This document shows, piece after piece, positions 7,520 to 64,000 of a stretch of 64,000 bases of DNA (within the stretch, counting starts at the first letter, position 1; every line of letters begins with the position of its first letter). The position numbers and the translations under genes are program-made. The notes under the pieces were generated by a model, which was given only the letters and a program-made list of their open reading frames with translations, searched no databases and had not been told where the DNA came from. Source of the DNA: an uncultured bacterium (GTDB lineage: Bacteria > Hinthialibacterota > Hinthialibacteria > Hinthialibacterales > Hinthialibacteraceae); NCBI GenBank assembly GCA_964419335.1, contig CAYQOX010000024.1:1162-65161 (forward strand), in the 5' to 3' direction.

Positions 7520-7568
7520 TTATATTTATACAATCGGTTCGTTAAACGAATAGAATGCGAGGTTGATC

Positions 7569-8918
7569 ATGAAACGAAGAGAGTTTTTGCGTATAACGAG
7601 TCAAGCGGGATTCCTGGCGGCCTGGTCCGCCTGGGCGAAACCTATGGCCACAGCTCAAGGCCAAGATTCGAAAACCCCCAACGTGGTCTTTATCATCGCC
7701 GATGATATGGGATGGAACGATGTCGGTTACAACAATCCTTCCATGATTACACCCCATATCGACCAACTCGCCAAAGAAGGCGTTACCTTCACCCATCACT
7801 ACGCAACCCCCACCTGTACCCCCACCCGGGTGGGTATTCTAACCGGACAATACCCCAGCCGTTTTGGAGTTACCGGCCCCGATTACGGCAAAATCTTCCG
7901 GGATGATACGCTGACCCTCGCCAACGCTATACGAGATGAAGGCTACCACACCGCCATCTCCGGCAAATGGCATGTAGGCTCGCCCCCCAAATGGACCCCC
8001 ACCCGCTACGGCTTCGAGTCCTCGTATGGCTACTTCCACGGCCAGATCGATCCCTATTCTCACTTATACAAAACCGGGGTCAAATCCTGGCATCGCAACG
8101 ATGAATACATCTTCGAACTCGGGCATGCCACCGATCTCATCAGCGACGAAGCCGTACGCGTTATCGAAGAGAAACAGGATGAACCCTTCTTCCTCTATGT
8201 ATCTTACAGCGTTCCCCATTACCCCTTAAGCGAACCCGAAAAATGGGAATCCCTCTATTCCGATGTTGAATCGGAATCACGCCGATGGTACAACGCAAGT
8301 ATCTCCCACATGGATCAAGGGATTGGCCAAATTGTCGAAGCCTTGGATCGTACCGGACAGCGGGAAGATACCCTCATCGTCTTCGTCAGCGATAATGGCG
8401 GCCAAAAAGGATGGAGTAATGATCAACAATACCATGGCCAATACGCCGATAAACCCCACACCGTCCTTGGCGACAATGCTCCTCTCCGCGGTTGGAAAGG
8501 CCAAGTCTACGAAGGCGGTATCCGCGTTCCCGGTTTAATCAACTGGAAAGGAAAACTCAAACCTCGCACCTTCGATATGCCCATCCACTGCGTGGATTGG
8601 ATGCCAACCCTTTGTTCCCTCTGCGGCGGGGAAGAAAAACTAAAAGAATGGGATGGCATTAACTTTTGGCCCTACCTCAAAAAAGAGAAAGACGAATTCC
8701 CCTCACGCAGCATGTATTGGAATACGGGCGGCATGTTGGCCGTGCGCCAGCATGGCTGGAAATTAATCCAAAACCGAAACGGCGATCGCGTCGAACTCTA
8801 TCACATCGAAAAAGATCCCCATGAGAAAAAGGATCTTGCCGATGAAAAACCGGAAAAAGTACAAGAATTAAAACAATTACTCCAAGAGATTCAAAAACGA
8901 GATCGAGATAAATTATAA
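7569..8918 (+). CDS. Tat-secreted formylglycine-dependent sulfatase (arylsulfatase family)
   Basis: MKRREFLRITSQAG Tat signal; IADDMGWNDVG; CTPTR (C-x-P-x-R) motif; ORF 7563 trimmed to ATG 7569 with GAGG upstream. Confidence 0.85.
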   Translation: MKRREFLRITSQAGFLAAWSAWAKPMATAQGQDSKTPNVVFIIADDMGWNDVGYNNPSMITPHIDQLAKEGVTFTHHYATPTCTPTRVGILTGQYPSRFGVTGPDYGKIFRDDTLTLANAIRDEGYHTAISGKWHVGSPPKWTPTRYGFESSYGYFHGQIDPYSHLYKTGVKSWHRNDEYIFELGHATDLISDEAVRVIEEKQDEPFFLYVSYSVPHYPLSEPEKWESLYSDVESESRRWYNASISHMDQGIGQIVEALDRTGQREDTLIVFVSDNGGQKGWSNDQQYHGQYADKPHTVLGDNAPLRGWKGQVYEGGIRVPGLINWKGKLKPRTFDMPIHCVDWMPTLCSLCGGEEKLKEWDGINFWPYLKKEKDEFPSRSMYWNTGGMLAVRQHGWKLIQNRNGDRVELYHIEKDPHEKKDLADEKPEKVQELKQLLQEIQKRDRDKL

Positions 8919-17592: not shown

Positions 17593-18978
17593 ATGAACAT
17601 TACTCTCATGAATCTCCATCTTCAAAATAATCACCATACAGACTTTGATATCATTCTCGACTCCATCGCCGATGGCGTGTTTACCGTCGATCACGAATGG
17701 AAAATCACCAGCTTTAACCGCGCAGCCGAAGAAATTCTTGGTATTCCCCGGGATGAGGCCATCGGTCGCCCCTGCTGCGAAGTCTTTCGCTCCAGCATCT
17801 GCGAAAGCCAATGCGCCCTAAGTGAAACCATGCGCTCCGGCCAATCCATTGTGAATAAAACCATCTTTGTCGTGAACACCAAAGGCGAAAAAATCCCCAT
17901 CAGCATTTCTACCGCCATCCTCAAAGATGAAGAAGGTAACATCATTGGCGGCGTAGAAACCTTCCGGGATGTCAGCCAAGTAGAAGAATTAAAAAAAGAA
18001 CTCACCAAACAATACTCCTTCATGGATATTCTCGGCCGCAGCCCCTCCATGCAAAACATCTTCGAAATTCTCCCCCATATCTCCCAAAGCAACGTCGCCG
18101 TTCTCCTCAGCGGCGAAAGCGGCACCGGCAAAGAACTCTTCGCCCGCGCCATCCATAATATCTCCCCCCGCGCCAAATATCCTTTCGTCGCGGTTAACTG
18201 TGCCGCCTTGCCCGATTCTTTACTGGAATCGGAACTGTTTGGCTACAAAGCCGGCGCCTTTACCGACGCAAAACACAATAAAGCCGGACGCTTTTCTCTC
18301 GCCCACCGCGGGTCTATTTTCCTCGATGAAATTGGCGATATCTCCCCCGCCATGCAGACGCGCCTTCTCCGCGTTCTCCAAGATCAAACCTTCGAACCGC
18401 TGGGCTCCACCGACTCAGTCCAAGTGGACGTCCGCATCATCACCGCTTCCAACAAGGACCTTTCCCAACTTGTTCAACAAGGGGTCTTTCGTGATGATTT
18501 ATACTACCGTATTAATGTCATCAAAATCGATATTCCCCCCTTGCGCGAACGCAAAGAAGATATCCCTCAATTGATCCAACATTTCGTCTCCAAATACAGC
18601 CGTTTAGAATCCAAAGAAATCTCCGGCGTCTCCGACTCCGTCATGGCCACACTGATGGATTACGAATTCCCTGGCAATGTCCGTGAATTGGAAAATATTA
18701 TCGCCCATTCCGTCGTTTTATGCAGCACCGGCACCCTCGAAATCCAACACCTCCCCTCCAACATTCTCCCCCAATCCCTCACTCCCTCCACTCCCTCCAC
18801 AAAACCCATGTCACTTCGCGATATGGAATCTTTCCATATCATGAATTCCATTCGTCAACATCACGGCAATCGCACCGCCGCTGCCAAAGCCCTGGGTATC
18901 CACCCCAGTACGTTGTTCCGCAAAATTAAAGAACTAAACCTCGATCTCCCTGATATGGACGGCCGCCATCGCAAATAA
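17593..18978 (+). CDS. PAS-domain sigma-54-dependent transcriptional activator (enhancer-binding protein, no REC domain)
   Basis: N-terminal PAS; AAA+ sigma-54 interaction domain (GESGTGKELFARAIH, ESELFGY, GAFTDA variant of GAFTGA, FLDEIGD); C-terminal HTH (AAAKALGIHPSTLFRKIKEL). Confidence 0.85.
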   Translation: MNITLMNLHLQNNHHTDFDIILDSIADGVFTVDHEWKITSFNRAAEEILGIPRDEAIGRPCCEVFRSSICESQCALSETMRSGQSIVNKTIFVVNTKGEKIPISISTAILKDEEGNIIGGVETFRDVSQVEELKKELTKQYSFMDILGRSPSMQNIFEILPHISQSNVAVLLSGESGTGKELFARAIHNISPRAKYPFVAVNCAALPDSLLESELFGYKAGAFTDAKHNKAGRFSLAHRGSIFLDEIGDISPAMQTRLLRVLQDQTFEPLGSTDSVQVDVRIITASNKDLSQLVQQGVFRDDLYYRINVIKIDIPPLRERKEDIPQLIQHFVSKYSRLESKEISGVSDSVMATLMDYEFPGNVRELENIIAHSVVLCSTGTLEIQHLPSNILPQSLTPSTPSTKPMSLRDMESFHIMNSIRQHHGNRTAAAKALGIHPSTLFRKIKELNLDLPDMDGRHRK

Positions 18979-19145
18979 TAGTATTGCATAATGCGATCCT
19001 CTTTATCCCTATTTACTCTCCTTTTGCAAGTCTGTCTTTTCGCTAATCTCTGTCCCCTCAAACAAAAATGCTTGAATCTATTATTTTTATAAAAGATTGT
19101 TCTCAATTCCCAAATTTGGCACGTTTCCTGTATACCTACCCTAAC

Positions 19146-19550
19146 ATGAAAGTATCAATCCCGGTTTGGAACCATAGGGTATCGCCCGTATTCGATACCG
19201 CCCGGCGTTTATTGGTCTTCACAGATACAGGAGAAGATCAAATTAAACAGGTGGAATACTTAGTCGAAGGACTTGACTTCTTCCACCGGGTCGAATGTCT
19301 CATTCGCATCGAAGTTGATGTGCTTATCTGTGGGGCTATTTCCAAACCTCTGGAAGATGAGATCGTTTCACGCGGGATTCAAGTCATTTCCCAAGTGTGC
19401 GGAAATGTAAACGAGGTATTCGAAGCCTATTGCTCCAAACGTATTTTTACCGATTACTTCTTGATGCCCGGCTGTTGTAAAAAAAGAAGAATTCGCAATC
19501 GGTTTAGAAAAAAGAAAGGAAAGGATCCATTACGTGAAAATCGCTATTAG
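19146..19550 (+). CDS. NifX/NafY-like (dinitrogenase FeMo-cofactor-binding fold, PF02579-type) small protein with basic Cys-containing tail
   Basis: MKVSIPVWNHRVSPVFDTARRLLVFTDTG...LICGAISKPLEDEIVSRGIQVI fits the NifB/NifX-family fold; ORF 19068 trimmed to ATG 19146. Confidence 0.5.
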   Translation: MKVSIPVWNHRVSPVFDTARRLLVFTDTGEDQIKQVEYLVEGLDFFHRVECLIRIEVDVLICGAISKPLEDEIVSRGIQVISQVCGNVNEVFEAYCSKRIFTDYFLMPGCCKKRRIRNRFRKKKGKDPLRENRY

Positions 19551-19896
19551 TTCCCAAGGGAAACACTTGGATAGTCCAATCGATCCTCGATTTGGACGCG
19601 CATCGTACTTCATCATCGTCGACACAGAAACAGACGAATTTACATGCCATGATAATGACCAAAACAAGAATGCCACCCAAGGCGCTGGGATCCAAACCGC
19701 CAGTACTCTCATTGATCTCGGCGTAAAGGCTGTCATTAGCGGCAACCTCGGCCCTAAAGCCTTTTCAACTTTACAAGCAGATAATATCGATATGTACACC
19801 ATGCCAGCCGGTACCGTCAACGAAGCCGTTACGAAATTTAAAACCAGTCAATTAAATTCTGTAAACAAAGCAAGCGTAGAAGGACGTTGGGTATAA
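19534..19896 (+). CDS. NifX/NafY-like (PF02579-type) cofactor-binding protein
   Basis: MKIAISSQGKHLDSPIDPRFGRASYFIIVD...GAGIQTASTLIDLGVKAVISGNLGPKAFSTLQADNI canonical family pattern. Confidence 0.7.
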   Translation: MKIAISSQGKHLDSPIDPRFGRASYFIIVDTETDEFTCHDNDQNKNATQGAGIQTASTLIDLGVKAVISGNLGPKAFSTLQADNIDMYTMPAGTVNEAVTKFKTSQLNSVNKASVEGRWV

Positions 19897-19897
19897 T

Positions 19898-20779
19898 ATG
19901 AAATCTTATCTTGACTGTATACCATGTTTCATGCGCCAAACCTTGGATGCCATTCGCCGCATCACTGACGATGAAAGCATCCAAGAAAGTGTCCTGCGCA
20001 CCATTTTGCTTGAAGCCAGTCAAATGGATCTAAACGAACCGCCGCCCCGCATGGGACAAAAAATTCATCGCCTTATTCGTAAAAAAACCGGAGTTTCTGA
20101 TCCCTACGAAGAAACAAAACGCCAATCCAATCAGGAAGTCCTTTCCCTCTACCAGGGATTACGCTCCATCATCGACGATACAGATGAATCGATCGAACTG
20201 GAAACTGCTTTTCGCTTAGCCATCGCGGGCAACATCATCGATCTCGGCACTAATTCGCATATTCATCGCGCCGATATCCAAAAAGGAATCGATCAGGCTC
20301 TTGTCGATCCTTTTTACTGGGACCATAAAGAAATACTGAAATCCATCAGCCAAGCCCATAGCATTCTCTACATCGCCGATAATGCCGGTGAAATTGTCTT
20401 TGATCGCTTACTGATCGAACGTCTACCCAAAGATAAAATCACGGTCGCCGTACGAGGCTTTCCCGTCTTAAACGATGCCACCCGCTTCGACGCTGAAGAA
20501 ACCGGCTTAACCTCTCTCGTGCATGTGATTGATACCGGCTCCGATGCCCCCGGCATCCTTCTTGAAGAATGCTCAGACGAGTTTTTACACCATTTCAACA
20601 ACGCCGATCTCATCATGGCCAAAGGCCAAGGAAACTATGAAACCTTAAGCGATCTCAACAGAAAAATTCTTTTCATATTGAAAGCCAAATGTCCTGTCAT
20701 CGCTCGGCACATTGGCTGCCAAGTCGGTGACATGATTTTAACCATGAATCGTTCTCCAGCTACGATTCAACAACCATAA
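19898..20779 (+). CDS. DUF89 family protein (ARMT1-like damage-control phosphatase fold, CxxC subfamily)
   Basis: N-terminal LDCIPCFMRQ motif characteristic of subfamily-I DUF89 proteins; length ~290 aa. Confidence 0.55.
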   Translation: MKSYLDCIPCFMRQTLDAIRRITDDESIQESVLRTILLEASQMDLNEPPPRMGQKIHRLIRKKTGVSDPYEETKRQSNQEVLSLYQGLRSIIDDTDESIELETAFRLAIAGNIIDLGTNSHIHRADIQKGIDQALVDPFYWDHKEILKSISQAHSILYIADNAGEIVFDRLLIERLPKDKITVAVRGFPVLNDATRFDAEETGLTSLVHVIDTGSDAPGILLEECSDEFLHHFNNADLIMAKGQGNYETLSDLNRKILFILKAKCPVIARHIGCQVGDMILTMNRSPATIQQP

Positions 20780-20804
20780 AAAGATATCATTCTAAGAAAG
20801 TGAG

Positions 20805-21212
20805 GTGATGATGATGCCAGGAGGAGACAGAAGAGGACCCTTAGGCATGGGACCCATGACCGGTCGTGCCGCAGGTTTCTGCGCAGGCTACTCCGCCCCG
20901 GGTTACATGAACCCGGCCTTCGGTCCTGGCTTTGGCCGCGGCCGTGGCCGGGGTGGTATGTTCGGCGGTGGCCGTGGTTGGCGTAATTGGTATTACGCCA
21001 CCGGCTTAACCGGTTGGCAGCGTGCTATGGCCGGGATGCCGCCCCATGGATACACCCCTCCCGCGGCGGCACCCGCCCAAGCCCCCCCAAATTGGGCTAT
21101 GAGCAAAAACCAAGAACTCGATGAACTCAAAGGCCAGGCGGAATATCTCGAGGACGCTCTGGATGGAGTAAAAAAACGCATCTCAGAATTGGAAAGCGAA
21201 CAAGCAAAATAA
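20805..21212 (+). CDS. DUF5320-like protein with Gly/Arg-rich N-region and C-terminal coiled coil
   Basis: GPMTGRAAGFCAGY...GRGRGRGGMFGGGRGWRNWYYATGLTGWQR matches DUF5320 conserved block; C-terminal ELDELKGQAEYLEDALDGVKKRISELE. Confidence 0.55.
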   Translation: MMMMPGGDRRGPLGMGPMTGRAAGFCAGYSAPGYMNPAFGPGFGRGRGRGGMFGGGRGWRNWYYATGLTGWQRAMAGMPPHGYTPPAAAPAQAPPNWAMSKNQELDELKGQAEYLEDALDGVKKRISELESEQAK

Positions 21213-21282
21213 ACTAACACTATGTTTGGCTAGGGTTCCTCCCATCATCCCATTCACCCTAGCCATTTTTTTGGAGAATACT

Positions 21283-21849
21283 ATGAGTATCGCGATAACT
21301 GCACAACAACCAACTTTAGATTCCGATGTGGATCCTCGCTTTGGCCGCTGCGCCTACCTTCTCATCGTCAATCCTGATAACTTCGAATTCGATGTCATGG
21401 AAAATCCCAATCTCTCCGCTTCCAGCGGCGCCGGGATCCAAACCGCCTCCCTCCTTTCCGAAAAAGGAGTCGATACCGTCATTACCGGCAACTGCGGCCC
21501 CAACGCCCACCAAACCCTCTCCGCTGCTGGGATCAACGTCATTACCGGTGCCGGCGGCCCCATCCGCGCTGTGCTCGAACAGTATCAACTCAATCATTTT
21601 TCTTCCGCCCAGGGCCCCAACGTCGATTCCCATACCGGCATGGCCAATAACGTAAATCCTTCTCCCGACCCAAATTTAAGTACACCGAATACAGGTTTCC
21701 CCGCCTCGGGTATGGGCCGAGGGAAAGGCCAAGGTCGAGGTGCCGGGGGTGGAGGCGGACGCGGCCAAGGCGGCGGCCGTGGTCAGGGACGAGGTCGAGG
21801 CCAAGGCCAAGGCGGTGGTGCTGGCGGCGGCCGTGGACGCAATCGCTGA
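21283..21849 (+). CDS. NifX/NafY-like (PF02579-type) protein with long C-terminal RGG/GRG-repeat tail
   Basis: MSIAITAQQPTLDSDVDPRFGRCAYLLIV...GAGIQTASLLSEKGVDTVITGNCGP; tail GRGKGQGRGAGGGGGRGQGGGRGQGRGRGQGQGGGAGGGRGRNR; GGAGA RBS; ORF 21226 trimmed to ATG 21283. Confidence 0.65.
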   Translation: MSIAITAQQPTLDSDVDPRFGRCAYLLIVNPDNFEFDVMENPNLSASSGAGIQTASLLSEKGVDTVITGNCGPNAHQTLSAAGINVITGAGGPIRAVLEQYQLNHFSSAQGPNVDSHTGMANNVNPSPDPNLSTPNTGFPASGMGRGKGQGRGAGGGGGRGQGGGRGQGRGRGQGQGGGAGGGRGRNR

Positions 21850-21894
21850 TTAATGTATTCTTACTCACGGATCAACCCAAGGGACTTTCGATCG

Positions 21895-22761
21895 ATGAAA
21901 ATATCAATTGCTAGTGGAAAAGGTGGTACCGGCAAAACCACCATCGCGACCAATCTCGCCTTTGCTCTATCCCAACAAGGCCTTCCAACATCCTATGTGG
22001 ATTGCGACGTTGAAGAGCCCAACGGGCACCTCTTTCTCAATCCCACCCGTGAAAGTCGAGAAACCGTGGGCATCACCGTTCCCTCCGTTAATCAAGAACA
22101 GTGCACCTTATGCGGGCTCTGCGGCCACATTTGCGCCTACAGCGCCATCGTTTGCGTTGGACAACAAGTGCTTACTTTCCCTGAATTATGTCATTCGTGC
22201 GGCGGGTGTTGGTTGGTCTGCCCCCAAAAGGCAATCTCAGAATCTTTTCGTCCCATGGGGGTCATCGAATTTGGACACGCAGGCTCCCTTCAATTCACCC
22301 AAGGAGTCTTAAACATTGGTGAAGTCATGCCCACCCCTGTACTCCGTGAATTGAAGAAAAAAGCCCCTCTGACCGAGGTCTCCATCTTTGACGCTCCCCC
22401 CGGGACCTCATGCCCCGTCATTGAAACCATACTCGATTCTGATTATGTCCTCCTTGTCGCCGAACCCACCCCCTTCAGCTTCCACGATTTGAAACTGGCA
22501 ATCGAGATGGTTCGTGAAATAAAATTACCTTTTGGCGTGGTTCTCAACAAAGCCGATGTGGAATACAGCGACTTGCTTGATTATTGCAATCGCATGCAAA
22601 TTCCAATCTTAGCCCAAATTCCACACCAACGCCCTATTGCTGAAGCCTATTCCCGGGGTGAATTACTCTGTTCTATCTTCCCAGAATATACAAAACTGTT
22701 TTTGGATATTTATAAATCAATTGAAACTGAGGTCGGTCAAACAAAGGGTATGACAATATGA
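21895..22761 (+). CDS. MinD/Mrp-superfamily P-loop ATPase with inserted 4Fe-4S ferredoxin domain (COG1149-type)
   Basis: MKISIASGKGGTGKTT deviant Walker A; CTLCGLCGHICAY and CHSCGGCWLVCP cysteine clusters. Confidence 0.75.
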   Translation: MKISIASGKGGTGKTTIATNLAFALSQQGLPTSYVDCDVEEPNGHLFLNPTRESRETVGITVPSVNQEQCTLCGLCGHICAYSAIVCVGQQVLTFPELCHSCGGCWLVCPQKAISESFRPMGVIEFGHAGSLQFTQGVLNIGEVMPTPVLRELKKKAPLTEVSIFDAPPGTSCPVIETILDSDYVLLVAEPTPFSFHDLKLAIEMVREIKLPFGVVLNKADVEYSDLLDYCNRMQIPILAQIPHQRPIAEAYSRGELLCSIFPEYTKLFLDIYKSIETEVGQTKGMTI

Positions 22762-23654
22762 AAGAATTGGTTGTGATCAGTGGTAAAGGTGGAACCGGCA
22801 AAACTTCCATTGCCGCTTCTCTCGCTGCATTAGTACAAAAGGTCGTTATTGCGGATTGTGATGTGGATGCCGCCGATATGCATTTGCTCCTTTCACCACA
22901 AATTCAATTCAAACAAAACTTTTCTGGCGGCTCCATCGCTCGGATTTTACCTGGACATTGCACCGCGTGTGGCAAATGTGAAGAGATCTGCCGCTTCGAT
23001 GCCATTTACTACGACGGCCCAGGTAATGGCATGGTCGACAAAACCTTTCGAATCAATCCTGTCCAATGCGATGGGTGTGGTGTGTGTGCCTGGTTTTGTG
23101 CAGAACATGCCATTGAATTCAAACCAGCCATCAATGGTGAATGGTATCAATCAGAAACCCGCCTTGGATCCATGGTTCATGCCAAATTAGGTGTCGCCGA
23201 AGAAAACTCGGGAAAACTAGTCACCTTAGTTCGTAATGAAGCAAAAAAACTCGCCCAACAGCAGCAAAGCGATTGGCTTCTCATTGATGGTTCTCCCGGC
23301 ATTGGTTGCCCTGTCATCGCTTCCATCACCGATACCGATTTAGTTCTCATTGTCGCCGAGCCCACCCGCAGCGGGATCCATGATTTAGAGCGGGTCGCGA
23401 AACTTACCCATCAACTCAACCTCAAAACCTTTGTTTGCATAAACAAGTGGGATATCAATCCCGAGCTTTCCCAGCAAATCGAAGAAAAAGCCCAAAACGT
23501 ATATTTACATTTTGCCGGCCGCATTCGTTATGATCCTGCATTCGATGCCGCCCAAAGAGAGCAGAGAACCCTCATCGAATTCCAACACAATGGTTCAGCG
23601 GATGATATCAAAAAATTATGGACAAACATAATCAATCATAAGGAGAGCAGATAA
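22758..23654 (+). CDS. MinD/Mrp-superfamily P-loop ATPase with inserted 4Fe-4S ferredoxin domain (paralog)
   Basis: ISGKGGTGKTS; CTACGKCEEICRF and CDGCGVCAWFC clusters; ATGA start/stop overlap with upstream paralog. Confidence 0.75.
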   Translation: MKELVVISGKGGTGKTSIAASLAALVQKVVIADCDVDAADMHLLLSPQIQFKQNFSGGSIARILPGHCTACGKCEEICRFDAIYYDGPGNGMVDKTFRINPVQCDGCGVCAWFCAEHAIEFKPAINGEWYQSETRLGSMVHAKLGVAEENSGKLVTLVRNEAKKLAQQQQSDWLLIDGSPGIGCPVIASITDTDLVLIVAEPTRSGIHDLERVAKLTHQLNLKTFVCINKWDINPELSQQIEEKAQNVYLHFAGRIRYDPAFDAAQREQRTLIEFQHNGSADDIKKLWTNIINHKESR

Positions 23655-23655
23655 A

Positions 23656-23994
23656 ATGAAGATTGCCATACCCGTTGTTGATGAAAAATTATCGGCTCAT
23701 TTTGGTCATTGTGAGTATTTCTCTTTGTACGAGGTGGATGAAAACACAAAGTCTATCCGTAGCCAATCCCAGCACACCCCGCCCCCGCATGAACCTGGCC
23801 TATTACCCCAATGGCTGCACGACCTGGGAGCGGATGTCATCATTTCCGGGGGCATGGGACAGCGGGCCCAACGCCTTTTTCAACAAAAAGGCATCCAAGT
23901 CATCGTCGGCGCCTCCAACGATCCCCCCGAAACCATCGTTACTCACTACATCAATAATTCTCTCGAAACCTCCTCCAACATGTGCGATCACTAA
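23656..23994 (+). CDS. NifX/NafY-like (PF02579-type) cofactor-binding protein
   Basis: MKIAIPVVDEKLSAHFGHCEYFSLYEV...LGADVIISGGMGQRAQRLFQQKGIQVI. Confidence 0.65.
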   Translation: MKIAIPVVDEKLSAHFGHCEYFSLYEVDENTKSIRSQSQHTPPPHEPGLLPQWLHDLGADVIISGGMGQRAQRLFQQKGIQVIVGASNDPPETIVTHYINNSLETSSNMCDH

Positions 23995-40206: not shown

Positions 40207-41979
40207 TTACCCCTTCACGCGGCGGACTTTCACTGCTTTAAGATCCATCACCATTTCGCCGGGCTTGCTCAGGGCTTTCACGCGTAATTGAGTCTTTCCC
40301 TTCGGTAGTTGCATGCGCCCTAGTTTTAAGGGAGCCCATTCCTTTTCATACACTTCCTTCCGCGGGACGCGATCGGGACTAGGCAAGGGCTCGGGATCAT
40401 GCGCTTTCTCGACAGTTCCCTCAAGCTGGGCATCCGCCGCTTCAACTCGGATTTTTGCACCGACATCCTCCTCGGCGCAGATGTACATCAGGGTGATTTC
40501 ATACTCCCCCGGGCAAACCACATCGATTTCCCAATAGGGATAAGCCTCAGTATCAGTCCATCCAGTCACCCAATCGTTCGCCCAGCCAGAAGGCCCATCA
40601 TAGCGGATGCCCTGATTCTTTTCGGGATGAAGAAAAGCCTCATGTCCGGGCATGACCACTTCAGGATGTTCTTCATGGCCTATCGGGATGGGGATCGGAT
40701 CGAAGCCTTTCTTCGTGACTTCCTGATACCATTGCTCATAAGCATTTTTTAATTGTTGTAAAAGATCAGGATGCTCAGAAGCCACGTTCTCTTTTTGTTC
40801 AGGATCATTCGCCATGTCGTAGAGTGTCCACTCGCCCCGTTCGAAGACCGCCCGCCAGCGTTGACTGCGCACTGCTCCCCGATTGCCCCAATGGTTGAAG
40901 ATCAAACGCTCTGGCCAATCCTCCGCTTGCTCCAGAAGCAAAGGCGCAAGAGTTACGCCATCTAATGGAAGTGTATCCGGCATGGGAATATCGCAGAGAT
41001 CAACCAGCGTGGGCAGGAGATCAATATGGGCGGCGATCGGCTCAACGACAGTTCCCGCCTCAATGGTTCCCGGCCAGCGCACAAAGAGCGGTACCCGCAC
41101 GCCACCCTCATGAGTACTTCCCTTGCGGCCTTTCATGTTTCCATTGTAACGGTCGGAATTAGGGCCGTTATCGGTGAGGAAGAGAAGGATGGTGTCATCA
41201 GTAAGATCCAATTGTTCCAGGCGGTCTACAATGCGCTTTAAGTTATCGTCAATATTTTCACACATTCCGTAGGCGCAAGCGGTTTTATCATCCAAGCCCC
41301 GCTGCTTATATTTATCGAAATATTTGTCTGGCACTTGCCAGGGAGAGTGGGGCGCATTATAGGACAGGTAGCAGAAAAAAGGCCGCTCTTGATTTTGATC
41401 GATAAACTCCAGCGCCGCATCAGTCAAAACATCAGTAATGTAACCCTCGGTTTTCACCATCTCGCCGTTGTGATCCAGGTGGGTATCAAAATAATTATTC
41501 CAGTGGCCGGCACAGAAACCCAAAAATTCTTCAAAACCCTGCCCGTTGGGATGAAAAGGATAATGCGCGCCATTATGCCACTTCCCAAAGCAGCCGGTCT
41601 TGTATCCCGCCGCCTGAAAGACTTCCCCGAGGGTGACCTCTTCGCTGCGCATGGTTTCCTGGCCCCGAGTCACTCCATGGCTGCCGGTACGCATATGATA
41701 ACGTCCGCTCAGCAGGCTCGCACGCGTGGGCGCACATACCGGACTCACATAAAAACGCTCGAACCGCGCCCCGGAATCTCCCAGGAAGTCCATCACCGGC
41801 GTGTCAATCTTGCCATTCCCATGACTATGAATATCACCCCAGCCTTGATCGTCGGTCATGCAGAGGATGACGTTAGGTTTTCGTGTTTCTTGGGCGTGTA
41901 GTGAGCGGTTCAAAGCGATATAGGTGCTGCCTGCGCCGATTGCGGATAAAAAATGTCGTCGTGAGATGGTTTTCTTCAT
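40207..41979 (-). CDS. Tat-secreted formylglycine-dependent sulfatase with C-terminal extra domain
   Basis: RRHFLSAIGAG Tat signal; CMTDDQGWGD; CAPTRASLLSGRY (C-x-P-x-R); ORF 42012 trimmed to ATG 41979 with GGAGG RBS. Confidence 0.85.
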   Translation of the reverse strand: MKKTISRRHFLSAIGAGSTYIALNRSLHAQETRKPNVILCMTDDQGWGDIHSHGNGKIDTPVMDFLGDSGARFERFYVSPVCAPTRASLLSGRYHMRTGSHGVTRGQETMRSEEVTLGEVFQAAGYKTGCFGKWHNGAHYPFHPNGQGFEEFLGFCAGHWNNYFDTHLDHNGEMVKTEGYITDVLTDAALEFIDQNQERPFFCYLSYNAPHSPWQVPDKYFDKYKQRGLDDKTACAYGMCENIDDNLKRIVDRLEQLDLTDDTILLFLTDNGPNSDRYNGNMKGRKGSTHEGGVRVPLFVRWPGTIEAGTVVEPIAAHIDLLPTLVDLCDIPMPDTLPLDGVTLAPLLLEQAEDWPERLIFNHWGNRGAVRSQRWRAVFERGEWTLYDMANDPEQKENVASEHPDLLQQLKNAYEQWYQEVTKKGFDPIPIPIGHEEHPEVVMPGHEAFLHPEKNQGIRYDGPSGWANDWVTGWTDTEAYPYWEIDVVCPGEYEITLMYICAEEDVGAKIRVEAADAQLEGTVEKAHDPEPLPSPDRVPRKEVYEKEWAPLKLGRMQLPKGKTQLRVKALSKPGEMVMDLKAVKVRRVKG

Positions 41980-42029
41980 GGAACTTTCCTCCCATTCTAT
42001 TTTTCCACCCATGATCCAAGTGAACCTAT

Positions 42030-50231: not shown

Positions 50232-51644
50232 CTATTTGAAATTTGTGATCGTGTCGGTAATTTGTTCCATGACCGAGCGTAATTTTTGTTCGGCTTCCAT
50301 TTCTTTCTCAATTTTGTTGTAAGCAAAGAGAACCGTGGTGTGATCTTTGTTCCCGAAAAACGCGCCAATTTCTGGGAAAGAATGCTGGGTTAATTTCCGG
50401 CTGAGGTACATGGCGATTTGCCTAGGACGCGCGATCGAACGCGAACGGTTCTTCCCGATGATATCTGATGGTTTGATGCTGAAATATTCTGCGACTTTTC
50501 GTTGGATTTTCTCAATCGTGACTTCCTTGGTGGGACGGTCGAAGATCTCCCCGAGCACCTTACCCACTGTTTCAACGTTGAGATTCTCATTCGAAAACTT
50601 CGCGTAGGCGGTAATCTTGGCGAGGGCGCCTTCCAACTCACGAATGGAAAAACGCACTTTACTGGCGAGAAATTCCAAAATGTCATCGGGGATGATCATA
50701 TCCTCGGTTTCACATTTTTTCCGTAAAATCGCCATACGCATCTCAAAATCGGGAGGGGTAATATCTACGATCAATCCCCACTCGAAGCGTGAGCGGAGGC
50801 GGTCTTCGATGGTGGGGATATCCTTAGGCGGACGATCGCTGGAAATCACGATTTGTTTGCGGCGGTTATGGAGCGCGTTAAACGTATGGAAGAATTCTTC
50901 CTGGGTAGATTCTTTCCCCGCTAGAAATTGAATATCGTCGATCAGCAAGACATCCACATTACGGAAGGTGGATTGAAACGAGAGGCGGGCGTTGCGCTTA
51001 ATCGCATCGATAAAGACGTTGACGAATTGTTCCGCCGAGAGATAGACCACCCGCTTGGCGGGGTGTAAATACTGCACTTTATTCCCGATCGCCTGCATTA
51101 AGTGGGTTTTTCCCAGTCCGACACCGCCGTAGACAAACAGAGGGTTGTAGGATTGGGCTGGAGCAGCGGCCACCGCTTGAGCGGCCGCATTCGCCATTTT
51201 GTTACATGTTCCAACCACGAAATTGTCAAAAGTATAACTGGCGTTTAATGGTTCAAACTCAAGCAATCCTTCTGTGCTTGTAATGGCTGGGCTGTAGGAA
51301 GGAGCATAAGAACTTGGGGCTTGTGCCTTCACCTCTTCCCCCATCGAGCCGCTGAGTCGAATTTCTACATCCACAATACAATCCAATAATTCAGAAAATA
51401 TATCCGTTAGCAGGGCATGGTAATTCTTTTCGATGTATTCCCTGCGGTACCCGCTGGGGATACCTAGTATGACGTTACCATCTATGTTTTCAAGGACTTG
51501 TGCATCTTCAAACCAATCTTCTAATTCATCTTCCGTGAGTTTATGACGCAGCGCTTCTTGCGCCTTTTCCCAAAGAGAGCGTGTGTTATCCGTGTTCATT
51601 ACATTGGGCATGACTACCATTTTTTCCATAATCCTCCTTCCCAT
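50232..51644 (-). CDS. dnaA: chromosomal replication initiator protein DnaA
   Basis: AAA+ box LFVYGGVGLGKTHLMQAIGN; domain IV IARPRQIAMYLSRKLTQHSFPEIGAFFG.KDHTTVLFAYNKI; true start probably 51628 or 51620 (GGAGGA RBS at 51633-51638). Confidence 0.9.
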   Translation of the reverse strand: MGRRIMEKMVVMPNVMNTDNTRSLWEKAQEALRHKLTEDELEDWFEDAQVLENIDGNVILGIPSGYRREYIEKNYHALLTDIFSELLDCIVDVEIRLSGSMGEEVKAQAPSSYAPSYSPAITSTEGLLEFEPLNASYTFDNFVVGTCNKMANAAAQAVAAAPAQSYNPLFVYGGVGLGKTHLMQAIGNKVQYLHPAKRVVYLSAEQFVNVFIDAIKRNARLSFQSTFRNVDVLLIDDIQFLAGKESTQEEFFHTFNALHNRRKQIVISSDRPPKDIPTIEDRLRSRFEWGLIVDITPPDFEMRMAILRKKCETEDMIIPDDILEFLASKVRFSIRELEGALAKITAYAKFSNENLNVETVGKVLGEIFDRPTKEVTIEKIQRKVAEYFSIKPSDIIGKNRSRSIARPRQIAMYLSRKLTQHSFPEIGAFFGNKDHTTVLFAYNKIEKEMEAEQKLRSVMEQITDTITNFK

Positions 51645-62518: not shown

Positions 62519-64000
62519 TTATTGATCCTTCTGGCGTTGATTAAATTGTTGGCGTTCTTTTTGGGTATAGTAGACATAGTGATCCCAAGGCGATTGTTCT
62601 TGCATGCGGGGATCCTCGGTTTGTTTGAGGTATGCTTCCATGCGTGCTTTCAGGGACTTTTTGATTTCTTGGTAGTCGGGATTTTCTGCGAGATTATGGA
62701 TTTCGCCGGGATCGTTTTCCAGATCATAGAGTTCTTCCGGTGGGCGTTTTTCGAAAGCGAGTAGGAAGAAGTTTTTTATAGCGGGATCTTCCTTGTGTTC
62801 GAGCATATAGGATTTGGATGGGCTGCCGTCGATATCCCCGTAATTCCCTCGCTTGGCGCTTTCATTGTCAGGGACGCCCGCAGGCCAACGGTCGGGTTCG
62901 TAGTTACGAATATAGCGGTAGCGATGGGTGCGGAGGGAGCGCATGGGATAGCCGACATCCTTGGGACGGCAGAGGGTGTGGCGTTCAAAGTAGGTGATAT
63001 TGAAGTCCCGTTGGGGATCGATGCGGTCTTCTTCGTCGCTTTGAAGAATAGGCATTAGGCTACGGCCGGCCATTTGTTTGGGGATGGGGAGTCCCGCGGC
63101 TTCGAGAAAGGTGGGTGCTACATCGACCAGACTCACCATGTCATTGACAACGCGGCCACCGGGAATTTTCTTAGGCCAGAACACGACAAAGGGTTCGCGG
63201 GTCCCCATGTCGTATAAATTGGCTTTGCAGCGGGGGAAGGGCATGCCGTTATCGGAAGTGGCAATGATCAGGGTATTCTCTAATTCGCCTTTTTCTTCCA
63301 AGGTGTTGATCATACGCATGAGATGGGCATCGAGGTGTTCGATTTCGTGATAATAATCCAGGACATCGCTGCGAATTTCAGGGGTATCGGGATAGGAGGG
63401 TGGAAGTTTGGCGTCTTCCAGTTTTTTGCCGGAATTTAATCCTGCGCCTTTTTCATAGACGCGATGCGGTTCGAAGGGGCCGTACCAGAAGCAGAAGGGT
63501 TGGTCTTGGGGGCGATCCTCGAGAAAGGCATCGAAGTTGGCGGCGTAGTCGATATTGTTCATGCCTTCGGGGCGAGGTTTGAGTTTGATTTGGTTATAGG
63601 CCTGGCCTGTGGGAGAGTCTTCCCAGCCTCCGGCTTTGAGGAAGCCTGGTCCCCAGGTTTTTCCTGTGGAGCCGATGGCATAGCCCGCTTTTTCGAGTAA
63701 TTTGGGGAAAACGGGAAATTTGCTGGGTAAGGCTCCATACAGCAGGCTTCCCTCTTCCAGACGCCAGGCGTGTTGCCCGGTGAGGACAGCACTGCGGGAA
63801 GGGGTGCAGGAGGGGGCGGCGGTGAAGGCATAGTTGAAGAGGACACCCTCGCGTGCGAGGCGATCGAAGGCGGGGGTATGGATGCCTTCGTCGCCGTAGG
63901 CTCCTACGTGGAGCCAGGATTGATCGTCGGAGATGACGAAGAGGATGTTGGGGCGTTCTTTTTGGCTATGGGCGGGGAGGTGGTTTAGGGAGGTTAGGGC
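62519..64000 (-). CDS. formylglycine-dependent sulfatase (iduronate-2-sulfatase/heparan-N-sulfatase-like), N-terminus beyond window end
   Basis: Frame is open and continuous from the window end through ORF 62519..63562: ...ILFVISDDQSWLHVGAYG...APSCTPSRSAVLTGQ (C-x-P-x-R)...MNNIDYAAN... Confidence 0.8.
   Translation of the reverse strand, partial: ALTSLNHLPAHSQKERPNILFVISDDQSWLHVGAYGDEGIHTPAFDRLAREGVLFNYAFTAAPSCTPSRSAVLTGQHAWRLEEGSLLYGALPSKFPVFPKLLEKAGYAIGSTGKTWGPGFLKAGGWEDSPTGQAYNQIKLKPRPEGMNNIDYAANFDAFLEDRPQDQPFCFWYGPFEPHRVYEKGAGLNSGKKLEDAKLPPSYPDTPEIRSDVLDYYHEIEHLDAHLMRMINTLEEKGELENTLIIATSDNGMPFPRCKANLYDMGTREPFVVFWPKKIPGGRVVNDMVSLVDVAPTFLEAAGLPIPKQMAGRSLMPILQSDEEDRIDPQRDFNITYFERHTLCRPKDVGYPMRSLRTHRYRYIRNYEPDRWPAGVPDNESAKRGNYGDIDGSPSKSYMLEHKEDPAIKNFFLLAFEKRPPEELYDLENDPGEIHNLAENPDYQEIKKSLKARMEAYLKQTEDPRMQEQSPWDHYVYYTQKERQQFNQRQKDQ

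Follow-up and report, generated by a model that had tools for sequence, protein, structure and literature searches.

Conserved, predicted disordered Gly-Arg tracts on a NifX-like protein and a DUF5320 protein of an orp-type gene cluster

The window, i.e. the whole stretch of 64,000 nucleotides of an uncultured bacterium that was analysed here, carries a group of genes on the + strand that, judged from their sequences, make up an orp-type cluster of metal- and Fe-S-handling proteins. According to Pfam, the gene at 17593..18978 encodes an OrpR-type sigma-54 enhancer-binding protein (PAS-AAA+-HTH). It has a cysteine triad, C61, C70 and C74, together with E63 (17773-17814); the triad is invariant in five cluster-linked enhancer-binding proteins, including the neighbour of the true ORP in Desulfovibrio sp. 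X2, and its spacing equals that of DvH OrpR, in which C52/C61/C65 and D/E54 hold a redox-sensing [4Fe-4S] cluster (PMC8359166). A scan for sigma-54 promoters (TGGCAC-N5-TTGC, <=2 mismatches) gave 35 matches where 52 are expected by chance, and the single match close to the cluster, at 19117-19131 and only 15 nt upstream of the likely start codon, was dropped as a promoter candidate.

Downstream lies the gene of a divergent NifX-like protein of 134 aa (19146..19550, from ATG 19146), which matches PF02579 weakly and has homologues of 127-144 aa. Its C-terminal tail, PGCCKKRRIRNRFRKKKGKDPLRENRY, is rich in Cys and in Lys/Arg, and the C-terminus of its positional counterpart in Desulfovibrio sp. 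X2 is PGCPCRCRGLGPGAGGGRGHRGGRGCGG. A tail-less, ORP/MTH1175-like NifX paralogue of 120 aa follows (19534..19896; PF02579, 4.5e-24; 2WFB in a PDB sequence search, 2.3e-17); in the alignment it has neither of the cysteines of the tailed subfamily described below. The ARMT1/DUF89 damage-control phosphatase at 19898..20779 (Pfam, 7e-68; NCBIfam) is a conserved member of the cluster and syntenic in the loci L002, L003, L004, L006 and L007. The genes at 21853..23654 encode two P-loop ATPases of the MinD/Mrp type into which 4Fe-4S ferredoxin motifs are inserted (Pfam CbiA/ParA and Fer4); they resemble Orp3 and Orp4 as described in PMC6345978, and every related locus, true ORP loci included, has the pair in synteny. 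A stand-alone MrpORP-type 'Di-Nase' NifX domain (23656..23994; NCBIfam MrpORP positions 265-365, 7.6e-38) carries the HFGHCE, TPPPHEPG and terminal CDH motifs described for MrpORP (PMC6345978). All of the conserved neighbours are metal- or Fe-S-handling proteins.

Between the phosphatase and the ATPases are the two genes that encode the Gly-Arg tracts. The downstream one, ORF 21283-21849, gives a NifX-like protein of 188 aa that closes with GMGRGKGQGRGAGGGGGRGQGGGRGQGRGRGQGQGGGAGGGRGRNR; a start at ATG 21283 matches the N-termini of its homologues. The NifX-like domain (PF02579/IPR003731; 21283..21636; 1.1e-23 over residues 13-102) is acidic, with a pI of 4.45 and a net charge of -7. Its top Foldseek match is ORP, 2WFB (TM 0.90, rmsd 1.1 A); PH0822, TM1290, TM1816 and MTH1175 are matched too, and the sequence is 37% identical to that of 2WFB (E = 6e-16). 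A Pro/Asn/Ser-rich linker of 24 aa (21637..21708), recognised by its composition, a pLDDT < 50 and a comparable Pro-rich spacer in homologues, leads into the polycationic Gly-Arg tail of 46 aa plus stop codon (21709..21849), which is kept in kind across the subfamily. The tail is predicted to be intrinsically disordered: the AlphaFold pLDDT is > 90 over residues 1-118 and < 50 over residues 120-188, that is, over linker and tail.

Residues 143-188, encoded by 21709-21846, comprise 27 Gly, 9 Arg and 1 Lys and no Asp/Glu, aromatic residue or Cys, giving a net charge of +10 and a pI of 12; by a binomial estimate at p = 0.085, the chance of at least 27 Gly among 46 residues is ~1e-17. The last 40 residues of the protein are 60% Gly with 8 basic and 0 acidic residues. 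The whole protein has a pI of 8.80 (Biopython pK values) and 2 Cys, C23 (21349-21351) and C71 (21493-21495), both within the domain. The first-pass annotation had noticed a low-complexity cationic tract on a cofactor-binding fold, and composition together with the PF02579/ORP-like fold bears this out. It had called the sequence an RGG/GRG repeat; the RG/GRG part of this description stands, but direct reading shows not one RGG triplet in the tail. What is present is RG-x4-RG-x2-RG-RG, a tri-RG pattern according to the spacing definitions of tri-RGG, di-RGG and tri-RG that reportedly go back to Thandapani et al. in 2013, and this pattern alone is no proof of nucleic-acid binding.

The upstream gene encodes a full-length DUF5320 protein of 132 aa (20814..21212; PF17253, 78.2 bits against a cut-off of 27, profile positions 1-99), which confirms the earlier assignment to this family. 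ATG 20814 was taken as the start because an exact 132-aa copy, P0269, exists in the database. The N-terminus reads MPGGDRRGPLGMGPMTGRAAGFCAGY. The Gly-Arg tract itself, GRGRGRGGMFGGGRGWR, had been placed at the very beginning of the protein; it is in fact internal, residues 41-57 of 132 (20934..20984), and leads into a conserved aromatic motif, WRNWYYATGLTGWQRA, that extends to 21026. Among 74 homologues no exchange occurs at G43, G55 and R57, and conservation reaches at least 90% at R44, G45, G51-53 and N58. The N-terminal half (72 aa) has 22 G, 9 R, 11 aromatic residues, 6 P and 1 C and a pI of 11.2; it is conserved and, by its low AlphaFold confidence, predicted to be disordered. The C-terminal helix (residues 98-131, 21105-21206; pLDDT ~90) is acidic, with a pI of 4.5. 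A PDB sequence search for relatives of solved structure returned chance matches only (E >= 0.07). The PF17253 profile did not match the NifX tail (21634-21849) even at E <= 10, since the latter has neither the coiled coil nor the N-terminal GPxGxGPMTGR..C motif. Beyond the two Gly-Arg tracts, which are both genuine, a scan of the 64 kb window in all six frames gave only an antisense-frame match inside the DUF5320 gene and a weak match at the end of the window.

Inspection of homologues revealed the tract in 119 of the 120 best full-length relatives of the NifX-like protein. It is terminal in 70 of these 119, runs on into a coiled coil in 38 and is joined by an additional Fer4 domain in 11. When the domain without its tail served as query, which makes the count unbiased, 81 of 150 relatives (50%-identity representatives) had a tract. 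Absence from close orthologues, proposed earlier as grounds for doubting the tail, is thus not what the check found, and the statement that bacteria rarely have such tracts misleads with respect to this family, in which they are the norm. Since nearly all close homologues have it, the tract is a feature of the family and not an accident of DNA slippage. By medians, the subfamily tails are 38 aa long and 59% Gly, with 7 basic residues and 0 acidic or aromatic ones; between homologous tails Met, Gln, Ala and Lys replace one another, and acidic residues are nearly always missing. It is the charge of the tail rather than its sequence that is under selection. The cysteine pair C23/C71 likewise marks the subfamily, being present in 67/67 members and in 120/120 of the best 120 relatives, but in 0/120 proteins of the ORP clade.

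The tract is, moreover, a portable module: it ends NifX proteins, leads into a coiled coil to which a ferredoxin domain may be added, or stands free. In the fusion proteins, the Pfam DUF5320 match (positions ~10-99) spans the tract and the coiled coil. In the window, as in L002 and L003, the gene immediately preceding that of the tailed NifX protein encodes a DUF5320 protein; in L004 and L006 a DUF5320-type gene is located elsewhere within the same cluster. In Desulfovibrio sp. X2 a separate small G/R/Q/M-rich protein is encoded directly upstream of the tail-less ORP; DvH Orp7 (DVU2107) was approached only through this positional equivalent.

The DNA encoding the tail had been described as a GC-rich simple repeat prone to expansion. 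It is indeed GC-rich (0.74 versus 0.48 for the window), yet it is no simple repeat. TRF detected nothing beyond one hexamer array of 16 nt, no exact internal repeat is longer than 14 nt, and an internal duplication of 56 nt has an identity of only 71%. Codon use is mixed, Gly being encoded by each of its four codons and Arg by three, and the frame stays open up to a stop 4 nt ahead of the next gene. An Rfam search of the whole window gave no match to a structured RNA over the GC-rich stretch. An exact look-up of the tailed NifX-like protein in the protein collection returned no copy.

The closest precedent for this architecture is the Pyrococcus furiosus protein IssA (iron-sulfur storage protein A, PF2025/Q8TZG9) with its IssX relatives, a likeness drawn from the published description and from composition. 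In IssA an IPR003731 domain is combined with an unstructured tail that is cationic and rich in Gly (Vaccaro et al. 2017, PMC5524996), and the tail was proposed to bind anionic thioferrate (PMC5524996). By analogy, the most likely role of the tails described here would be the electrostatic binding of anionic metal-sulfide species, and the polyanion binding suggested from the sequence at first sight agrees with this sole experimental precedent. We propose that both tracts are modules, conserved, disordered and polycationic, of a metal-sulfur-cluster system that is specific to anaerobes and of the orp / IssA type. The analysis shows their conservation, predicted disorder, charge pattern and modularity as well as the orp context, whereas ligand and assembly are inferred, and we give the proposal an even chance of being right. 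In such a system the NifX-like domain would nucleate or hold an anionic iron-sulfide or metal-sulfide species, as assumed by analogy with IssA; this could be thioferrate-like (FeS2-)n, or else a discrete cluster that is anionic. Being flexible, the tail may then neutralise and wrap this species electrostatically and so promote a higher-order assembly, to which the DUF5320 protein could add a similar cationic stretch of Gly, Arg and aromatic residues, with a single conserved Cys, carried by an oligomerising helix. At low redox potential the OrpR-type sigma-54 activator encoded next to these genes probably turns expression on. Condensate-like self-association of the tails is possible.

The charges of the cluster are open to another explanation, in which the tails are electrostatic glue or a scaffold between proteins. 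They would dock on acidic partners (NifX domains, the DUF5320 helix, MinD-type ATPases) and so bring the ORP complex together or raise its local concentration, perhaps in the form of a condensate, with no inorganic ligand at the tail. Charges within the cluster are strongly complementary, with -7 (pI 4.45) for the domain against +10 for the tail and pI 11.2 for the N-terminal half of the DUF5320 protein against 4.5 for its helix, and fusion of the tract to a coiled coil that oligomerises is frequent. In addition, the ORP proteins are physically joined in a multiprotein complex, and MrpORP is located at a cell pole (PMC6345978). However, a scaffold leaves unexplained why the tracts accompany IPR003731 cluster-binding domains both in IssA and in the subfamily of the window, and the Desulfovibrio ORP complexes function with a tail-less ORP, although a free G/R-rich protein adjoins it there. 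We regard a purely protein-binding role as unlikely, if worth keeping in mind.

Nucleic-acid binding, raised in the first-pass annotation, would make the tracts RG motifs like the eukaryotic RGG/RG motifs that tether the cluster proteins to RNA or DNA. The tri-RG pattern in the tail and the compositional match to the RG tails of trypanosomatid ribosomal protein S10 (6.6e-10 in a PDB sequence search) are in favour of it. The context, however, offers no pointer in this direction: the conserved neighbours are all metal or Fe-S proteins, none of them tied to nucleic acids, Rfam found no RNA in the window, and the tail has neither RGG triplets nor aromatics. The experimentally studied relative, IssA, uses its tail for an inorganic polyanion. 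Binding of nucleic acids is, in our view, quite improbable.

Polycationic tails are able to bind acidic lipids, and the tracts might be tethers to anionic membranes that hold the NifX-like protein next to the MinD-like ATPases, at the membrane or the pole. The MinD-type C-terminal amphipathic helix reported for Orp3/Orp4 and the polar position of MrpORP (both PMC6345978) would fit, but nothing hydrophobic or amphipathic is present in the tail itself, which is 59% Gly with 0 aromatics, and we consider a membrane tether very unlikely. Hardly credible is a recent replication-slippage or assembly artefact that left a functionless tail: the high GC content of the coding DNA speaks for it, as does the fact that the exact tail length rests on one assembly, the sole other assembly of the organism (Logan contig L001) ending 24 nt short of the tail-coding DNA, but it is effectively refuted by the retention of the tract, charge purity included, across hundreds of diverged homologues, by the lack of a tandem array, the mixed codons and the open frame, and by the identical tails of P0064 and P0067, each found again in independent samples. 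For annotation this means that such tails should not be written off as slippage artefacts.

If tails of this kind do handle anionic metal-sulfide species through disordered Gly-Arg modules, three separate literatures would be joined, i.e. those on IssA and thioferrate storage, on the Desulfovibrio ORP complex and on Pfam DUF5320, and thousands of proteins of anaerobic bacteria and archaea would be concerned. They would offer a clear case, among bacteria, of a disordered region that is conserved and selected for its charge and whose ligand is plausibly inorganic. More speculatively, the tract may be a portable 'inorganic-polyanion chaperone' module that, together with the ATPases of the ORP complex, templates and stores thioferrate-like or hetero-metal sulfide polymers in a widespread bacterial system. 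We advance this only tentatively and think it rather less probable than not; if true, Fe-S mineral storage of the IssA type would be a general trait of anaerobic bacteria, redox-regulated by OrpR, and not a curiosity of the Thermococcales, and a function would be supplied for DUF5320 and for the enigmatic ORP complex.

Comparison with IssA brings out similarities as well as differences. The window protein shares with IssA/IssX the N-terminal IPR003731/PF02579 NifX-like domain, the Pro-rich spacer and the unstructured, cationic, Gly-rich tail, and the logic proposed for both would be an electrostatic grip on anionic Fe-S species. 'IssX' denotes an uncharacterised clade of homologues from non-thermophiles whose pI is high and whose tail is rich in Gly; the clade is delimited by pI >= 8, < 10 Cys and >= 10% Gly in the last 40 residues (PMC5524996). 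With a pI of 8.80, 2 Cys and 60% Gly the window protein falls within these limits. For IssA the limits are pI >= 9, < 5 Cys and >= 20% Gly in the last 40 residues (PMC5524996); Gly content and Cys count are inside these as well, and the pI is 0.2 units under the cut-off, a gap within the spread between pK sets. The published IssA tail has 70 aa with 15 G, 7 cationic residues, 14 aromatics, 11 P and 1 C and a pI of 10.7 (PMC5524996). Its aromatic (Trp) residues recur in a pattern with Gly and Arg, whereas the NifX tail of the window has none and is nearly pure Gly/Arg/Gln; it is the N-terminal half of the DUF5320 protein that resembles the IssA tail in composition, aromatics included (11 in 72 aa). 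Furthermore, the only Cys of IssA sits in the tail, whereas the window protein has two invariant Cys in the domain. This pair, missing from IssA, fits a discrete ligated cluster at least as well as a polymer. The issA gene belongs to a sulfur-responsive regulon of a hyperthermophilic archaeon, the window gene to a sigma-54/OrpR-type orp cluster of a bacterium, and the role of IssA itself is still debated. The host of the window looks like a sulfatase-rich PVC-type heterotroph, an observation that was counted against an IssA-type reading.

With Pfam DUF5320 the relation is direct, inasmuch as 20814-21212 is a full-length member and many tailed-NifX homologues match at positions ~10-99. The eukaryotic RGG/RG motifs (FUS, hnRNPs, the ribosomal protein S10 tails) likewise have repeated RG in a Gly-rich disordered segment, but the window tail is bacterial, stands in an Fe-S/metal context, is without RGG triplets and interspersed aromatics and gives no sign of arginine methylation or RNA partners. 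The Orange protein ORP/Orp8 (D. gigas 2WFB; DvH DVU2108) is the best match of the window domain in both structure and sequence and holds a non-covalent [S2MoS2CuS2MoS2]3- cluster. The window and the ORP cluster have a common logic of OrpR-type enhancer-binding protein, two MinD-ferredoxin ATPases and MrpORP-type NifX domains. The window protein is nevertheless no ORP orthologue: the best 120 ORP relatives have 115-180 aa (nearly all ~120), and the G/R tract and the C23/C71-type cysteines are each found in 0/120. For Desulfovibrio sp. X2, by contrast with the fused tail of the window protein, the G/R-rich element comes as a small protein of its own, encoded upstream of ORP.

The NifX-like protein encoded at 21283-21849 (+) ends in a tail, residues 143-188 (21709-21846; GMGRGKGQGRGAGGGGGRGQGGGRGQGRGRGQGQGGGAGGGRGRNR), that is devoid of acidic residues and contains 27 Gly, 9 Arg and 1 Lys, corresponding to a net charge of +10 and a pI of 12. 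The NifX domain preceding it is acidic (pI 4.45, net charge -7). This composition is far outside chance, the Gly count by itself reaching about 1e-17. The tail recorded in the first-pass annotation is present, but of the RGG/GRG repeats described there only RG and GRG repeats are found, with zero RGG triplets. Likewise, the underlying DNA is indeed GC-rich (GC 0.74) but not a simple repeat: TRF detected a 16-nt array only, the longest exact repeat has 14 nt, an internal 56-nt duplication is 71% identical, and codon use is mixed, with each of the four Gly codons and three different Arg codons occurring. A sequence search of the PDB with residues 140-184 gave apparently significant matches to 40S ribosomal protein S10 of trypanosomatids (E = 6.6e-10), which are purely compositional and stem from the RG-rich tails. 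A short stretch containing Gly and Arg (RRGCWGVLFGYGRGGGLGRL) is also seen at the extreme end of the window (63937-63996, + frame).

A search with the full-length protein gave 2163 significant relatives, and in 119 of the best 120 a G/R tract directly follows the domain. Sequence words of the tail itself bias such a search; a second one therefore used only the domain (residues 1-118) as query, with 1.84 billion representatives at 50% identity as the database. The tract was then present in 81 of the best 150, and many of the others were coiled-coil-ended, truncated or garbled. The tail is not an accident. Median values for the 119 tracts are a length of 38 residues, a Gly content of 59%, and 7 basic, no acidic and no aromatic residues, while Met, Gln, Ala and Lys swap freely; most relatives have GRGMGRG where the window protein has GRGQGRG. 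Such a pattern marks selection for charge and flexibility rather than for a particular sequence. Two exact tail-bearing proteins (P0064, P0067) were found again in independent samples, so the tails are not hypervariable. The window's own tailed protein is absent from a collection of 15 billion proteins. The only other assembly of the locus from this organism, a contig from Logan SRR7048228 (window ~19874-21685), stops 24 nt short of the tail DNA, its break falling where the GC-rich stretch begins; the exact length of the tail hence rests on one assembly.

AlphaFold2 (67-sequence alignment) predicted residues 1-118 with pLDDT >90 and residues 120-188 with pLDDT <50. The domain model superimposes best on the orange protein (ORP) of Desulfovibrio gigas (2WFB; TM 0.90, rmsd 1.1 A, identity 37%), followed by PH0822, TM1290, TM1816 and MTH1175. 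In sequence, ORP (6e-16) and MTH1175 (1.6e-15) are equally near. An orthologue of ORP was considered and ruled out by length, tract and cysteines: the 120 best ORP relatives, almost all close to 120 aa long, uniformly lack both a G/R tract and the cysteines at the positions of C23 and C71. In contrast, C23 (RFGR-C23) and C71 (TGN-C71) are invariant in 120/120 of the best relatives of the window protein. Both are also missing from the window's tail-less paralogue and from MTH1175, so that the tail-bearing proteins constitute a distinct Cys-pair subfamily.

The second tract noted in the first-pass annotation lies in the DUF5320 protein (20814-21212, +), not at its N terminus, as had been stated, but internally at residues 41-57 of 132 (20934-20984). 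The protein starts with MPGGDRRGPLGMGPMTGR at ATG 20814, as confirmed by an exact 132-aa database copy. The protein is highly conserved: in an alignment of 74 homologues, 21 columns are invariant, G43, G55 and R57 among them, and the WRNWFYATGLTGWQRA motif comes next. The first ~95 residues are predicted to be disordered and AlphaFold is confident only in the C-terminal helix 98-131. No relative was found among solved structures, and in the literature searched just two papers mention DUF5320, each a single time and in passing. The Gly-Arg tract is a portable module: among the top 120 relatives of the tailed protein, 38 extend it into a coiled coil and 11 others carry a 4Fe-4S dicluster domain after it. 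In such fusions, Pfam assigns tract plus coil to DUF5320 positions ~10-99, whereas the window's NifX tail alone gave no match to DUF5320. Desulfovibrio sp. X2 has, in its canonical orp (ORP complex) locus, a free-standing 112-aa protein that starts with MRNAMNNGMSGQGQGQGQGRGTGRGRGCGQGMGKGQGQGQGKGMGRGG and whose gene immediately precedes that of the tail-less ORP. This protein (L008:6562-6900, GCA_000422205.1), in the orp7 position, is rich in Gly, Arg, Gln and Met, has two Cys and has no Pfam hit on record. At a Phycisphaerae-labelled locus (L006:7126-7935, L007:7126-7935), a 269-aa protein is encoded immediately upstream of the tailed NifX gene. It has a lipoprotein-like N terminus and an extreme Glu/Gly/Asp low-complexity region, opposite in charge to the tail; being probably extracytoplasmic, it may be unrelated.

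The genes for the DUF5320 protein and the tailed NifX-like protein belong to a compact, co-directional set on the + strand (17.6-24.0 kb). It comprises a PAS-AAA+-HTH sigma-54 activator (17593-18978), a divergent NifX-like protein (to 19550, with a likely start at 19146), a NifX-like protein without tail (19534-19896), an ARMT1/DUF89 phosphatase (19898-20779), the DUF5320 protein, the long-tailed protein, two MinD/Mrp-type ATPases with ferredoxin inserts (21853-23654) and a further NifX-like domain (23656-23994). For the divergent protein, the start at 19068 from mechanical ORF calling is probably incorrect, as ATG 19146 yields 134 aa, the length of the homologues. The product has 6 Cys overall and ends in PGCCKKRRIRNRFRKKKGKDPLRENRY, with Arg/Lys making up 15 of the last 40 residues; this is a third basic tail within the cluster. 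Its counterpart in Desulfovibrio sp. X2 (L008:6059-6565) similarly has a C-terminal tail rich in Cys and G/R, compared to Cys and Lys/Arg here.

Synteny is kept in related loci, among them MAGs labelled Phycisphaerae or Planctomycetota: activator, divergent NifX, ARMT1, DUF5320, tailed NifX, two MinD-ferredoxin ATPases, often a radical-SAM protein, and an MrpORP-type ParA-NifX fusion. The ARMT1/DUF89 'damage-control phosphatase' within an orp-type cluster is syntenic in L002, L003, L004, L006 and L007. The same architecture is known from the orp cluster of Desulfovibrio vulgaris (PMC6345978, PMC8359166). [quoted passage not shown] The activator has C61-x-E63-x6-C70-x3-C74 (17773-17814, +), invariant in five cluster-linked activators. 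The spacing is that of C52, D/E54, C61 and C65, which hold the redox-sensing [4Fe-4S] cluster in OrpR of D. vulgaris (PMC8359166); the gene set is therefore probably redox-regulated. A sequence resembling a sigma-54 -24/-12 element, TGGCACGTTTCCTGT (19117-19131, +), precedes ATG 19146 by only 15 nt, and such matches are no commoner in the window than chance (35 found versus 52 expected). The window also contains dnaA, CysRS, two sulfatases, glycoside hydrolases and Gfo/Idh/MocA genes (including 50232-51644 (-), 7563-8918 (+) and 40207-42012 (-)). Gene content and best-hit names, the latter in agreement with Phycisphaerae/Planctomycetota, suggest a chromosomal region of a sulfatase-rich PVC-type heterotroph or polysaccharide degrader.

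We infer, with about even confidence, that domain and tail handle anionic Fe-S or metal-sulfide species, which is the most likely reading. The acidic Cys-pair domain would hold or nucleate such an anion, whether Fe-S or hetero-metal sulfide, and the disordered +10 tail would neutralise and wrap it and drive assembly. DUF5320 would supply the same chemistry on an oligomerising helix, and the OrpR-type activator would turn on the entire set when the redox potential is low. Conservation, predicted disorder, selection for charge, modularity and genomic context are what the sequence data show, while ligand and mode of assembly are inferred. Alternatively, the tails might hold the ORP complex together by electrostatic protein-protein contacts, as a scaffold or condensate, which we consider rather unlikely. 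The RG motifs might bind nucleic acids, but the context lends no support and this is improbable; a tether to acidic membranes is more improbable still. A slippage artefact, feared because of the GC-rich DNA, is effectively refuted by conservation in relatives and by DNA that is no simple repeat; the tail is a real, conserved feature.

The closest precedent for the metal-sulfide reading is IssA, the iron-sulfur storage protein of Pyrococcus furiosus, in which an IPR003731 domain is followed by an unstructured tail of 70 residues (pI 10.7), Pro-rich first, then cationic, aromatic and Gly-rich (PMC5524996). According to the proposal, electrostatic wrapping of anionic thioferrate (FeS2-)n by this tail yields Fe-S nanoparticles of 20-300 nm, which are able to rebuild the cluster of ferredoxin (PMC5524996). 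The function of IssA is still debated. The cysteines of the window's domain suit a polymer no better than a discrete cluster. 'IssX' denotes an uncharacterised clade of non-thermophile homologues with high pI and Gly-rich tail, for which, as for IssA, working criteria were given (PMC5524996). By these, the window protein would qualify as an IssX, and of the working criteria for IssA only the pI falls marginally short (8.80, cut-off 9). The cationic tail of IssA was explicitly noted to be missing from Orp9 (PMC6345978), and in the literature searched no link between orp clusters or DUF5320 and IssA-like tails was found. Unlike IssA, the window protein has a tail without aromatic residues and Cys, two invariant Cys in the domain and a gene within an orp cluster; the N-terminal half of DUF5320, compared by composition alone, is almost the same as the published IssA tail. 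The kind of feature was thus already foreseen by the description of IssA and IssX; new are the Cys-pair signature of the tailed subfamily and the link of IssA-like tails to DUF5320 and orp clusters.
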